A stretch of DNA of 12,059 bases, taken from the IMG/VR virus record IMGVR_UViG_2713896791_000029; one strand, written 5' to 3'. Below the pieces are notes generated by a model. It was not told the DNA's origin. It did not search any database and saw only the letters and a program-made list of their open reading frames with translations. Source of the stretch: a virus. Lineage: Duplodnaviria > Heunggongvirae > Uroviricota > Caudoviricetes. Shown piece by piece: positions 2,600 to 5,615 of this stretch (positions are counted from its first letter, which is position 1; every line of letters begins with the position of its first letter). Position numbers and translations under genes: made by a program.

Positions 2600-3142
2600 T
2601 TACTCGCCTTTCTTCTGTAGCAACTTTTCCGGTACGTTTCCGGTTGTTTCTTTCAAGTAATCAGCCAGTATCTGTGGGAGGTTGTCGGCAACTCTGGCAC
2701 TGGCATTACAGACTTTAACCACTTCCCTTTTAAGCCTGTCCAGCATGGCGGGGGTAATCTGTGGGAAGCTCCTTTGCATAGTAAGCGGGAGGATGTCCAT
2801 GATTGATGAAATCTGACTCGCCAGCTTTGAAAGCGCGTACAGGCAAAACTCAGTATCAATCACGTCACCGCGATCGCGATCGTTTTTAAGTTCCTGCGCC
2901 TCTGCCTGTGCTGTCAGTAATCTGATCCTGACTCGTAAAAGTTCATCATCGTCAATCTCGCCTTTGTCGTTTATAAGCTGGCTAATTGCATTGTTAACCC
3001 TATTTTCTATCACGCTGGCAACATCATAAAACGCCTCACGGCCTTTACGCTCAACGGGAGTTACTCCCCACTTGTCGAACGCTGTCGCACTTACACGGCA
3101 GCTTTTCGCCATGTTTTTTTTGTTCATCAGATGAGATTTCAT
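2600..3142 (-). CDS. Small terminase subunit, lambda Nu1-like (180 aa)
   Basis: The C-terminal two-thirds align with lambda Nu1 (LTAQAEAQELKNDRD...DTEFCLYALSKLASQISSIMDILPLTMQRSFP versus Nu1 LTRAQADAQELKNARD...ETAFCTFVLSRIAGEIASILDGLPLSVQRRFP). The N-terminal wHTH region has the same spacing with conserved NKK...A...S...W and EAFYDVASVI (Nu1: EVLYDSAAVI) but different intervening residues. Start codon choice is uncertain; the ATG at 3142 has only a weak Shine-Dalgarno. Confidence 0.85.
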   Translation of the reverse strand: MKSHLMNKKNMAKSCRVSATAFDKWGVTPVERKGREAFYDVASVIENRVNNAISQLINDKGEIDDDELLRVRIRLLTAQAEAQELKNDRDRGDVIDTEFCLYALSKLASQISSIMDILPLTMQRSFPQITPAMLDRLKREVVKVCNASARVADNLPQILADYLKETTGNVPEKLLQKKGE

Positions 3143-3143
3143 T

Positions 3144-3181
3144 AATACACCAACTTAATTACTGCTTCAGGTTGGTGTATT
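3144..3181. repeat. Inverted repeat: 11-bp arms AATACACCAAC / GTTGGTGTATT with a 16-nt spacer, ending 1 nt from the terS ATG
   Basis: Read directly from the sequence; perfect arm complementarity. Confidence 0.5.
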
Positions 3182-3317
3182 GCTTGCATCTTTCCCTTTT
3201 CATTCATAAAGATAGATCAAACAACAAAACCACCACCACCCCCCTGAAAAGGCTCATAAATAGCGAAAATCCGCGAGGTCTCCGCCCCGTAACAGGTCCA
3301 TATGCCGGAAAGGACCC

Positions 3318-3342
3318 GCAAAAAAGCCGGATTTCTCCGGCC
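3318..3342 (-). terminator. Intrinsic terminator (copy a): GCCGGA-loop-TCCGGC followed by U6 on the - strand
   Basis: A6 + GCCGGA tttc TCCGGC on the + strand, so hairpin then U-run on the - strand. Sits 5 nt after the stop of the 137-aa gene. Confidence 0.5.
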
Positions 3343-3347
3343 TTGTC

Positions 3348-3761
3348 TCAGATGGTTTTCAGTATGCGATCGATGTCGCCGTCATCGCCCGGGTTTCTGC
3401 CATCGTATGCCATGCCAGCTGATACGGCTTGTGGGCTGTGCATGTCCATAAAGTTTTCAAAGGCTGCGGTAAGCTCTGGTGCAACCTTCGGGCGTTCCTG
3501 CTCTATGGTCATGTTCAGGATGTTTTTAGCCGTATCAACATCAATACAAGGCACGTTTGCCATTGCACGTAACAGCGGCTGATAGTCGTCAGATTCATGA
3601 AGCGCCATAATCGCATCAGCGCGCGGCTTGTCCTTCTCTTCCAGGCTGTTAAGTTGATATACGGCCTCGTAGGTTGATAAACCTCTGTCAGCCATTGCCC
3701 GCGCTTCGGCTTTAAATTTACTCGCCAGCGGTAGCGTCATGATACTTTCATTCGTTGCCAT
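3348..3761 (-). CDS. Hypothetical acidic protein (137 aa) between the decoration gene and terS
   Basis: AGGGGG Shine-Dalgarno 4 nt upstream of the ATG, 12 nt after the stop of the gpD-like gene. Acidic and predicted helical. No motif I recognise; a scaffold or packaging accessory role is only a guess. Confidence 0.6.
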   Translation of the reverse strand: MATNESIMTLPLASKFKAEARAMADRGLSTYEAVYQLNSLEEKDKPRADAIMALHESDDYQPLLRAMANVPCIDVDTAKNILNMTIEQERPKVAPELTAAFENFMDMHSPQAVSAGMAYDGRNPGDDGDIDRILKTI

Positions 3762-3773
3762 CGTTCCCCCTGC

Positions 3774-4109
3774 TTATCGCGCCAGCGGCTGAACGGATAC
3801 GCCAGAACCCGCAAAGGCGGCGCATTTTTTCGCGTCGGTGTCGGCGCTCTCAGGCCAGTTAACGGCGGCAATATTGAATATCCCCGTCTTGTAGCACTGT
3901 GCTGATTTCTGCGTCGACGTGTCCACGGGGTACGAGGTCAGATAAACAGCCTTGCCAGATTCCTGACCATCCCACGGCTTAAACTCGCCATTTTCCGCCA
4001 GCATCAGCGGGGTAAATTCCTGAATAACGCCAGCATCAGCAGCAAAATGTACCAGCGTCGTGGATACCTGCTGACTACCTGCAAATAACTCAATGTATGG
4101 AGTGTCCAT
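3774..4109 (-). CDS. Head decoration protein, lambda gpD-like (111 aa)
   Basis: Aligns with remembered lambda gpD: FTPLMLAENGEFKPWDG...DTSTQKSAQCYKTGIF...WPESADTDAKKCAAFAGSGVSV versus TPLMLDTSSRKLVAWDG...DQTSTTLTFYKSGTF...[29 protein letters not shown] Shine-Dalgarno immediately after the stop of the capsid gene. Confidence 0.8.
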   Translation of the reverse strand: MDTPYIELFAGSQQVSTTLVHFAADAGVIQEFTPLMLAENGEFKPWDGQESGKAVYLTSYPVDTSTQKSAQCYKTGIFNIAAVNWPESADTDAKKCAAFAGSGVSVQPLAR

Positions 4110-4121
4110 AGAATCCCCCCG

Positions 4122-5177
4122 TTAACCAATTTTGACGGTAACAAATTTGCGAATATCTGCCGGTACCGGCTGCGGTGCGCTGTGCGTCTGCACGTACTCA
4201 ATCGCCGGATCGCCGTCCTCAATCCAGTTTTTCGGGTAAAACATGTTTTGCGTTGCGCCCGTTCTGACCGCTTCCTGATCCATAATCGCACCATAGGCCA
4301 CCAGCCCTTTATTGTTGGTGTTACCCAGGACCAGCAAATCAGGCTCAAGGAAATATTTTTCGGTGCCGTCGCTGTCAGTGTATTTGCCGGAATAGACGAC
4401 AAGGGCAATATCGCCCAGATAGCCTTTAAAGCTCACCACTTCACCCAGGTTTTTACAGGCCAGTTCTGCGGCGGATTCTGAACCACGGGAAAGGTCGTAC
4501 AGTTCGCGGAATTTTTTAAAGCTGCGTAACGTGCGCCATACTTCAGCGCCCATAATCATGACGTTTGCGGGGCAATTGCCCTGATCAGCATAAAGCTCGA
4601 TGTCATAGATTGGATCGTGTGTTTCTTTATCCAGCTCAGACCATTTTTTACCGTCAGCCTGTTCTATGATATTGCTTTCCGGGATCTTCCAGTCGATTTC
4701 ATAGCGTTCTATGCCTTCGCCCTCAATGAGGTTTTTTCCGGTCGTTACCGCATTCACCGCCAGCCATTCCACGCGTGCCTTAATGGCGTTTATCTGGCGG
4801 CGCATGTTGCCAGTAATCAGGCGCATACGGCGATAGGTAGGATCGTTAAGCTGTGCCGGATCTTCTCCAGCCATGCGCATGATGGTTTTTGTTGGATCGA
4901 TTTCGTGTTTGGGTTTCATGTAGCCTGGTTTAATCGTGCTGGTTTCGTACCCTTTATCGCGCTGGACCTGACTACCCACCATAGGCGAACAGAACGCTGA
5001 CATCGTAACCTCTTCAATGTCCAGGGTGTCCAGCATGATGTTCTGGGTGTTGAAGGTCGCCACGTTCGGGAAAAACAGCGTGGTAAACAGCGGACTGAAT
5101 TTAAATTCTGCAATATCCCCGCGATTCAGGTACGCGAAAAGCTGGTTAGTGTTAAGTGCCGTTGCTTTGCCTGCCAT
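4122..5177 (-). CDS. Major capsid protein, lambda gpE-like (351 aa)
   Basis: Multiple blocks shared with remembered lambda gpE: EFKFSPLF..LFF, PGYMKPKHEI, DPTYRRMRLI, DKETHDPIYDIELYA, FKGYLGDIALVVYSGKY, VLGNTNNKGL.AYGAI.D, YPKNWIEDGDPA.E....SAP. GGAGGTG Shine-Dalgarno; the stop of the upstream gene overlaps the start (TAATG). Confidence 0.9.
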   Translation of the reverse strand: MAGKATALNTNQLFAYLNRGDIAEFKFSPLFTTLFFPNVATFNTQNIMLDTLDIEEVTMSAFCSPMVGSQVQRDKGYETSTIKPGYMKPKHEIDPTKTIMRMAGEDPAQLNDPTYRRMRLITGNMRRQINAIKARVEWLAVNAVTTGKNLIEGEGIERYEIDWKIPESNIIEQADGKKWSELDKETHDPIYDIELYADQGNCPANVMIMGAEVWRTLRSFKKFRELYDLSRGSESAAELACKNLGEVVSFKGYLGDIALVVYSGKYTDSDGTEKYFLEPDLLVLGNTNNKGLVAYGAIMDQEAVRTGATQNMFYPKNWIEDGDPAIEYVQTHSAPQPVPADIRKFVTVKIG

Positions 5178-5383
5178 TATTCACCTCCATGCGTCTGATT
5201 CATGCCCAGCGCCGCGCGTAAATAGGCGCGGACCTGCCAGCCTGTTGACGGCTCAACCATCGCCAGCGGATCAAGTCCTGCCGCAATGCCTGCTTTTACG
5301 TTCTGCCGGTGGCGTTCCTTGAGCGCCTTCACGATGTCGGGGCTTATGTACACCGAAACACCGCCTTTTTTCTCTTCAGCCAT
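5177..5383 (-). CDS. Hypothetical small protein (68 aa), first gene of the head operon; possible ribbon-helix-helix-like fold
   Basis: Translationally coupled to the capsid gene. The N-terminus GGVSVYISPDIVKALKERH resembles a beta-strand plus helix RHH motif, but this is weak. Confidence 0.5.
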   Translation of the reverse strand: MAEEKKGGVSVYISPDIVKALKERHRQNVKAGIAAGLDPLAMVEPSTGWQVRAYLRAALGMNQTHGGE

Positions 5384-5417
5384 AGTAAGAAATTCCTCTT
5401 CGACTTAAAAAATCATA

Positions 5418-5468
5418 ACTGGATGTTTATCCAGTCCTGATTATAATCAGAATTGCATTTTATGCAAT
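5418..5468 (-). promoter_or_regulatory. Three adjacent palindromes overlapping a sigma70-like promoter for the head operon
   Basis: ACTGGAT-gttt-ATCCAGT (5418-5435), perfect 14-bp palindrome CTGATTATAATCAG (5437-5450, contains TATAAT), and ATTGCAT-ttt-ATGCAAT (5452-5468, contains a TTGCAT -35-like hexamer on the - strand). About 35-85 bp upstream of the 68-aa gene. Confidence 0.5.
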
Positions 5469-5548
5469 GATATTGAGTTATGTTGCAAATTATGAAATGA
5501 TTATCCCGATCACGAACGCCAGTGCATCCAAAAACCTCATATGCAAAA

Positions 5549-5586
5549 GCCCGATAAGAACCCTCTGACCTTATCGGGCTTTTTTT
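5549..5586. terminator. Hairpin GCCCGATAAG-loop-CTTATCGGGC flanked by an A-run and T7; bidirectional terminator-like
   Basis: Perfect 10-bp stem with 11-nt loop, T7 on the + side and A4 on the other. Confidence 0.5.
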
Positions 5587-5590
5587 GGGC

Positions 5591-5615
5591 GCAAAAAAGC
5601 CGGATTGCTCCGGCT
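5591..5615 (-). terminator. Intrinsic terminator (copy b): GCCGGA-ttgc-TCCGGC followed by U6 on the - strand
   Basis: About 20 nt downstream of the stop of the 74-aa gene. Near-identical to copies a and c. Confidence 0.55.

Follow-up and report, generated by a model that had tools for sequence, protein, structure and literature searches.

A predicted LexA-repressed late promoter upstream of the capsid and packaging operon of an Escherichia coli phage-inducible chromosomal island

Locus, inverted repeats and homologous regions

The DNA analyzed in this study, referred to as the window, comprises 12,059 nucleotides (nt) of the IMG/VR virus record IMGVR_UViG_2713896791_000029 and is 100% identical to the chromosome of Escherichia coli 2011C-4251. 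The element is a phage-inducible chromosomal island (PICI) of E. coli, integrated between phoQ and roxA. Related sequence is present in 772 of 5,426 complete E. coli genomes, O157:H7 and other Shiga toxin-producing strains among them. Every island gene is located on the minus strand. The order starts with the genes of the integrase and an AlpA-type helix-turn-helix protein, followed by those of a DUF4222 protein (RgdR), a RepA-type helicase, SSB, PerC and a 74-aa protein. Next come two terminators and the capsid/packaging operon (2600-5383, minus strand), the latter being assigned by Pfam and PHROG matches and by the RefSeq annotation of the identical locus. Here, we describe a 51-bp cluster of inverted repeats upstream of this operon, which in our reading of the sequence is probably its late promoter under control of the host repressor LexA.

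The operon begins with a gene for a 68-aa protein (5383-5177), followed by genes for a lambda E-like major capsid protein (Phage_cap_E; 5177-4122), a D-like decoration protein (HDPD; 4109-3774), a 137-aa protein resembling the C-terminal part of scaffold/protease proteins (3761-3348) and a Nu1-like small terminase (TerS; 3142-2600), all on the minus strand. The island is a lambda-capsid-type E. coli PICI. The 68-aa protein has a narrow family, mostly from E. coli with relatives in Salmonella and Pluralibacter, and in these islands its gene is invariably followed by that of a lambda E-like capsid protein. The window contains two runs of N, at 7356-7419 and 8429-8478, which stand for 232 and 192 bp of real sequence and fall inside the RepA-helicase and DUF4222 (RgdR) genes. 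Past them, window coordinates are shifted against genome coordinates by 168 bp and then by 310 bp. RgdR was also considered as part of the promoter locus and rejected, being the DUF4222 protein of the early region.

Within 51 bp, a repeat search found three inverted repeats: P1 (ACTGGAT-GTTT-ATCCAGT, 5418-5435), P2 (CTGATTATAATCAG, 5437-5450) and P3 (ATTGCAT-TTT-ATGCAAT, 5452-5468). This confirmed an initial annotation of the stretch, including the description of the middle repeat as a perfect 14-bp palindrome with TATAAT, which P2 carries on both strands. The repeats lie in a 161-bp AT-rich gap between the terminators and the capsid operon. Their position about 35-85 bp upstream of the first gene of the head operon (ATG at 5383, minus strand) was also borne out, as were the tandem terminators further upstream, which form minus-strand hairpins at 5615-5598 and 5583-5545. 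The rarity of the cluster was estimated by Markov simulation, counting cases in which three perfect repeats, each with arms of 6 or more and a loop of 4 or less, lay within 60 bp and did not overlap. Of 200 simulated 12-kb windows, 0.5% contained such a triple; for the AT-rich intergenic region of 161 bp, the share was 0.01% among 10,000 simulations. Perfect palindromy is partly particular to the window copy; among 75 unique homologous upstream regions, it was found for P1 in 39, for P2 in 36 and for P3 in 13.

These homologous regions were gathered via a search with the 68-aa protein and thus blind to the promoter sequence. Sources were Salmonella, Pluralibacter, two Logan assemblies, 80 IMG/VR loci and 42 metagenome loci. 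The data set contains 125 usable regions with 75 unique sequences, and base pairs were counted on 21 distinct rows. A protein-based scan of genome contigs for homologues found nothing, and a DNA-pattern scan of genome contigs, which gave almost only chance matches in unrelated phyla, was not used. Labeled members of the set are the Salmonella locus (L004), the Pluralibacter locus (L006) and a clade of seven loci (L009). Four deep lineages align gap-free through the core. Read along the gene strand, the blocks with little or no variation are ATTTCA, TTGCAA, TCAA, TTGC, AAAATGCAAT, TGATTATAATCA, CTG, a T6 run and GTC-AAGAGGA.

Late promoter and divergent promoter

On the minus strand, the cluster contains a -35 hexamer TTGCAT (5462-5467) and a -10 hexamer TATAAT (5440-5445). 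TTGC is invariant in 75/75 unique homologues, and the last two bases of the -35 hexamer are AC, AT, GC, AA, GT, GA or TC. The -10 hexamer reads TATAAT in 67, TAAAAT in seven and TATAAC in one of them. The initial annotation had already noticed the TTGCAT -35-like hexamer on the minus strand in the third palindrome, but with a spacer of 15 nt; the measured spacer (5467-5462 to 5445-5440) is 16 nt. This 16-bp spacing between TTGC-nn and TATAAT is kept in all 75 variants, including those of Salmonella, Pluralibacter and a clade with 63% identity. TTGCAT-16-TATAAT matches the consensus at 9/12 positions and fits the sigma-70 criterion of a 16-18 bp spacer. A promoter scanner called the homologous promoter in Salmonella (TTGCGA-16-TATAAT, 10/12) and in L009 (TTGCAA-16-TAAAAT, 9/12). 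The conserved TTGC and TATAAT at 16 bp distance and the scanner calls in homologues support the earlier proposal of a late promoter of the head operon, and the region very likely serves as promoter of the head/packaging genes. Transcription is predicted to start near 5433 (minus strand).

P2 (5437-5450) reads as the -10 hexamer inside a conserved 12-bp dyad, TGATT-AT-AATCA, whose core is near-invariant in the 75 sequences. The L009 clade has TGATT-AA-AATCA as its core, and Salmonella has TGGTT-TA-TAATCA. The outermost pair of P2 is free (C-G in seven, A-T in six, U-G in one and unpaired in seven of the 21 distinct rows). A LexA box at P2 was rejected, as CTG-N8-CAG is wrongly spaced and conservation of its outer pair is lacking. 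P3 (dyad A; ATTGCAT-AAA-ATGCAAT on the minus strand, 5452-5468) comprises the -35 hexamer and the spacer element AAAATGCAAT with TGCAA at -24 to -20; its commonest form in the homologues is ATTGCACAAAATGCAAT. The left arm of P3 is the -35 hexamer (TTGC fixed, next two bases free) and the right arm is the conserved spacer element. The symmetry of P3 is not maintained, since A5463 is freely variable and its partner T5457 is almost invariant. Conservation of the spacer element AAAATGCAAT has no sigma-70 rationale.

Downstream of the predicted start, the 5′ leader of the operon (5381-5412, minus strand) contains a T6 run (5412-5407), GTC, the Shine-Dalgarno sequence AAGAGGA (5400-5394) and the ATG (5383-5381), and these columns are invariant in all lineages. 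Folded from the predicted start, the leader is no more stable than shuffled sequences (z = 0.04). On the other side of the gap, the terminator scan located the first terminator of the upstream replication/PerC unit (5592-5615, minus strand), consisting of AGCCGGAGCAATCCGGCT followed by T6. It folds within a structure of -37.6 kcal/mol (z = -5.1).

A candidate divergent sigma-70 promoter was found on the plus strand (5473-5501), with a -35 hexamer TTGAGT (5473-5478), a 17-bp spacer, TGn (5493-5495) and a -10 hexamer AATGAT (5496-5501); its predicted start is at about 5508. The -35 hexamer starts with TTGA in 73/75 sequences, and TGAAAT-n-AT is present in 75/75, with variation at the -9 position only. 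Homologous sites, each with TG, were called by the scanner in Pluralibacter (TTGACA-17-AATTAT, 10/12), L009 (TTGACT-17-AATCAT, 9/12) and Salmonella (TTGATC-17-AATAAT, 9/12). Overlapping the spacer and the extended -10 region of this promoter is a second P3-like unit (dyad B; TTGCAAATTATGAAATGAT, 5483-5501, plus strand), 30 bp from P3. P3 and 5483-5501 form a direct repeat (D1) of 19 nt with 84% identity, in which ATTTCA and TTGCAA are near-invariant among the homologues. TGCAA occurs in the same register (-24 to -20) of both promoter spacers (5453-5457 and 5484-5488). The half-sites of the two dyads vary as complementary pairs (TTGCA/TGCAA and TTTCA/TGAAA). No known factor could be matched to the TGCAA elements. 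Likenesses to other known sites, i.e., CytR octamers for P3, a Fur box for GATAATCATT, CRP, lambda CII (TTGC-N6-TTGC) and P2 Ogr (TGT-N12-ACA), were considered and set aside, in part because of a poor fit in spacing or conservation.

The divergent promoter faces a bidirectional terminator hairpin (5545-5583, to 5586 with the T-run) with 14-bp arms of 100% complementarity, T7 on the plus strand (5580-5586) and T4 on the minus strand. Read in gene orientation, an A-run precedes the hairpin in all homologous lineages, so that the hairpin is efficient in terminating transcription of the opposite strand. The hairpin is likely the 3′ end of a divergent RNA as well as the second tandem terminator for upstream minus-strand transcription. 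From the arrangement of these elements, the divergent promoter probably yields a plus-strand RNA that starts at about 5508, ends at 5586 and is about 80 nt long. The body of this predicted RNA is poorly conserved among lineages, and the hairpin begins about 40 nt after the promoter. Rfam gave only sub-threshold matches, e.g., AsxR with 18 bits versus a gathering score of 63. A search for a cis target of the predicted RNA within the island gave none, with no direct repeat of at least 9 nt.

P1 as candidate LexA operator

P1 is contained in a predicted LexA operator, GACTGGATAAACATCCAGTT (5417-5436, minus strand). This box starts 4 bp downstream of the conserved TATAAT and would span about -3 to +17 of the late promoter, counted from the predicted start. 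The SOS box consensus of E. coli is TACTG(TA)5CAGTA, with a CTG-N10-CAG dyad and an AT-rich center (PMC6590174). GACTGGATAAACATCCAGTT agrees with this consensus at 14/20 positions, with CTG and CAG properly spaced. For a quantitative measure we used the heterology index (HI), whose matrix was solved from 140 pairs of sequence and HI in Table S1 of PSOSP (PMC12527982 supplement). The additive matrix was recovered exactly, with a maximum residual of 3.5e-5. P1 has an HI of 7.61, the best value among nine CTG-N10-CAG sites in the window. In a set of 24 tested E. coli sites, all those with an HI of at most 12.6 bind LexA and all those with an HI of at least 15.5 do not; the threshold published for Mean Shift is 13.2, that for the strictest method 10.8, and the near-identical site CGCTGGATATCTATCCAGCA is a validated LexA binder with an HI of 9.19 (PMC12527982). 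An HI of 7.61 or lower is expected by chance, on an AT-rich background, 5.6e-5 times in the 161-bp intergenic region and 0.001-0.004 times in the whole window. As its HI lies within the range of validated binders, P1 fits an operator of host LexA and not a site for an island or helper protein.

The same fit was observed among the homologues. The LexA box has an HI of 5.41-9.86 in 117/125 homologous loci, and in these CTG and CAG are unchanged. Variation affects the base in front of CTG (A, G or T), the four bases at the center (AAAC, GAAC, GTTC, GTAC, AAAT or GTTT) and position 15. At position 15, a change from C to A (CCAG to ACAG, the consensus) recurs on several backgrounds; thereby the HI drops to 5.41 and the stem gains a G·A mismatch. 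Changes on both sides of a P1 pair were absent from the 21 distinct sequences, all departures being unpaired cells. In Pluralibacter, the box is located about 12 bp further downstream, yet it is intact with an HI of 8.44. Of the other loci, one has an indel that looks like an assembly error. To judge by the aligned sequences, the conservation pattern of P1 is that of a protein site, with fixed half-sites, free variation at tolerated positions and no hairpin covariation.

A second LexA-like box, ATCTGTGTGCTTATCCAGTA (10782-10801), has an HI of 10.53 and is located in the stretch that separates the integrase stop (10830) from alpA. In many related islands, among them one of the L009 clade without P1, a comparable box with an HI of 5.1-12.2 is found 4-8 kb upstream of the late promoter. 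As a sequence match, this second box lends support to the idea that the island family uses LexA.

Two observations come from other islands. A degenerate island copy in E. coli SCU-171 (L003), in which the genes of PerC, SSB and the helicase are frameshifted, has lost 34 bp (homologous to window positions 5417-5450) in a clean deletion that removes exactly P2 and P1, i.e., the -10 hexamer and the LexA box. L370 is a capsid-forming PICI of the O157:H7 strain 611 that shares its early genes with the island of the window. Upstream of its capsid gene (4950-4981), it carries a block of 28 nt in which TTGTTC is repeated with about 10-bp spacing. A near-identical TTGTTC block occurs in the window between int and alpA (10738-10773), the L370 copy being inverted relative to the genes. 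A regulator common to the islands, such as AlpA, may use this block as an operator.

Based on the promoter elements, their conservation and the HI values, the 51-bp cluster is probably a LexA-repressed sigma-70 late promoter of the capsid/packaging operon. RNA polymerase with sigma-70 would use the -35 hexamer TTGCAT and the -10 hexamer TATAAT and start near 5433. In the undamaged cell, a LexA dimer on P1, over the start site, would block transcription. After DNA damage, active RecA would trigger self-cleavage of LexA, the same signal that induces lambdoid helper prophages. Freed of LexA, the promoter would allow the island to produce its capsid, decoration, scaffold-like and small terminase proteins. 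LexA binding, the start site and SOS inducibility are what we infer from these features. The initial annotation had described the promoter as tightly repressed or activator-dependent; repression is very likely. The suggestion that three palindromes mean three converging regulators, possibly including a helper-encoded one, is not supported, since P1 fits LexA, P2 is the -10 region and P3 is the -35 hexamer plus spacer element. P1, P2 and P3 are not three equivalent operators.

Several points weigh against this assignment. The -35 hexamer of the window matches the consensus at only 3/6 positions, which is below the rule of the scanner, and no promoter was called in the window. The chance figures given above are somewhat optimistic, as LexA was thought of after the palindrome was known. 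The L009 clade keeps the promoter and has lost the right half of the box (CTG-N10-ATG), from which it follows that the family can do without LexA control. No LexA box is present in 10 kb of L370, including the region upstream of its capsid gene, so that the feature is specific to islands of the lambda-capsid type. The TGATT/AATCA arms and the TGCAA elements are accounted for by neither LexA nor sigma-70. Induction of alpA in EcCICFT073 was reported to be helper-dependent and not SOS-dependent (PMC6092414); therefore, SOS alone cannot drive the island cycle. A literature search for binding, start-site or expression data on the locus, such as chromatin immunoprecipitation or electrophoretic mobility shift assays, found none.

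Alternative readings and comparison with known systems

The elements left over by LexA and sigma-70 lead to other readings with further regulators. It is possible that a further regulator acts at the conserved TGCAA elements. In a tentative and rather improbable extension, the locus would be a two-input switch, in which the LexA-gated capsid promoter and the divergent promoter of the RNA of about 80 nt share a second regulator at the TGCAA elements and the TGATT/AATCA dyad. Capsid expression would then need SOS plus a helper or island signal, with the small RNA as part of the circuit. It is unlikely that regulators encoded by the island or the helper (AlpA, PerC, the ribbon-helix-helix (RHH) protein or a helper late regulator) each occupy one palindrome, the promoter being activated or repressed by them. 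This arrangement would give a role to the TGATT/AATCA arms, the spacer element AAAATGCAAT, the second TGCAA in the same register and the paired variation of the half-sites, and the -35 hexamer is weak (3/6). However, P1 is quantitatively explained by LexA, and neither the symmetry of P3 nor the outer pair of P2 is kept. The motifs of P1, P2 and P3 have no further copies in the island, except for the LexA-like site at 10782-10801, and one homologous locus (L002) retains the sites, yet lacks a perC gene at the corresponding position immediately upstream. Also, no helper-phage promoter with the motif was found; none of 50,697 phage records matched the region by BLAST, and the non-PICI matches to the core motif in IMG/VR share no flanks and are due to chance. 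None of the analyses linked the YlcI/YnfO-type RHH protein of the island (9606-9785, plus strand), PerC or AlpA to the sites. A related proposal places only one regulator at the cluster, namely the 68-aa product of the first gene as an RHH-like autorepressor of its own operon. Its AlphaFold model is beta-alpha-alpha, with a strand at residues 9-13 and helices at 15-34 and 47-58 (mean model confidence score, pLDDT, 73), and the gene always accompanies the promoter region. But the protein has no Pfam family and falls into a PHROG of unknown function only, the overlap of its stop codon with the capsid start codon (5177) suggests a role in assembly, and helix 1 of the model (20 residues) seems longer than is usual in RHH proteins. 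Autorepression by this protein is considered highly improbable.

Two readings do without a repressor at P1. As a hairpin, P1 would be either a 5′ stabilizing stem-loop or a leader terminator/attenuator that is overcome by an antiterminator of the Q or AlpA type loaded between -35 and -10, which we regard as very unlikely. A terminator scanner lists P1 plus T-run as terminator-like in the window, Salmonella and Pluralibacter, T6 follows directly after the hairpin in Pluralibacter, the T6 run is invariant, and the full palindrome folds with -10.3 kcal/mol (z = -3.2). A promoter for loading of Q or AlpA needs a binding element between -35 and -10, a -10-like pause element and a downstream terminator, and the conserved spacer element lies where the Q and AlpA binding elements sit (PMC9371919). 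However, compensatory changes were found for 0/7 pairs of P1, departures being unpaired (G·A in 4/21 rows), the stem has only three G-C pairs and is separated from the T-run by 5 nt in most lineages, and the predicted start (about 5433) falls inside the 5′ arm, where the leader that remains shows no excess stability. An intrinsic terminator or regulatory RNA hairpin at P1 was rejected on these grounds. For a loading site of the Q/AlpA type, the spacer element is present but a conserved pause element is not. According to our reading of the alignment, the first 25 transcribed bases contain no conserved -10-like pause hexamer (A2, T6) across the homologues, and the candidate pause TATGAT varies as TGTGAT, CCTGAT and TCTGAT. 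In addition, AlpA of the island has 62 aa and appears to be without the N-terminal ring segment described for the antiterminator AlpA (PMC9371919). Finally, the palindromes might be incidental, i.e., chance symmetry in an AT-rich promoter without any repressor. In favor of this, TATAAT is intrinsically near-symmetric, and palindromy is conserved neither in P3 nor in the outer pair of P2. Against this stand the rarity of the cluster, the invariance of the P1 CTG/CAG and the P2 core although the flanks have diverged between lineages, and the expectation of an HI of 7.61 of only about 6e-5 in the intergenic region; this is the least credible of the readings considered.

For the LexA-repressed late promoter, several consequences would follow if the assignment is true. 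It would give host SOS a direct input to the capsid and packaging genes of a widespread island family, and it would reveal a regulatory logic in satellites that is convergent with operon I of the Staphylococcus aureus pathogenicity islands (SaPI). SOS-inducing antibiotics would raise the expression of satellite capsid and TerS even without a helper, and lexA(Ind-) hosts would mobilize the islands poorly. The predicted small RNA of the divergent promoter is a further lead, as is the second LexA-like box, close to int and alpA. Nothing relevant was found in the searched literature on LexA control of Gram-negative PICIs, on OI-51 small RNAs or on the box sequence itself. In the papers on Gram-negative PICIs that were searched, AlpA- and helper-dependent induction and Rpp/TerS redirection are reported, and regulation of the late operon is not described.

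Operon I (packaging) of SaPI is LexA-controlled according to Ubeda 2007 as cited in PMC6092414 and PMC6739421. As predicted here for the PICI, this satellite operon for capsid morphogenesis and terS lies behind an operator for host LexA, so that packaging rises with the SOS response that induces the helpers. The two differ in their operators, as the Gram-positive LexA box is of another sequence type than the Gram-negative CTG-N10-CAG, and in their proteins, since cpm, ppi and terS of SaPI are unrelated to the homologues of lambda E, D and Nu1 in the PICI. Homology is not indicated either, with no staphylococcal cpm/ppi match among the Pfam and PHROG hits, and no direct comparison made. The PICI late promoter would therefore be a functional analogue of SaPI operon I with independent origin, arrived at by convergence.

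Late-gene promoters that load an antiterminator, namely lambdoid PR'/qut and Pseudomonas PalpB, resemble the PICI promoter in having a conserved element in the spacer between the -35 and -10 hexamers and, a short distance downstream, a hairpin with a T-run. Unlike these, the PICI promoter has no conserved pause element, its hairpin shows no covariation and overlaps the predicted start, and it has no similarity to phage late promoters.

Closer parallels are found among LexA-controlled sites. CGCTGGATATCTATCCAGCA, which we take to be the ruvAB SOS box of E. coli (the source table gives the sequence only), shares the CTGGAT-N4-ATCCAG dyad with P1. It differs in the central four bases and the flanks; P1 has the better flanks and the lower HI (7.61 versus 9.19), and the ruvAB box is chromosomal and not on a mobile element. 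On mobile elements, LexA operators overlap and gate core promoters in coliphage 186 (tum), the colicin operons and CTX-phi (rstA). There, LexA control triggers induction or toxin release, whereas the PICI box would gate the structural and packaging genes of a satellite that is induced via its helper and AlpA. Peduoviridae prophages with a minimum HI of 5.7-5.9 are also listed as SOS-dependent by PSOSP (PMC12527982). LexA at promoters of mobile elements is thus well known, and the late promoter of the PICI is a predicted new instance.

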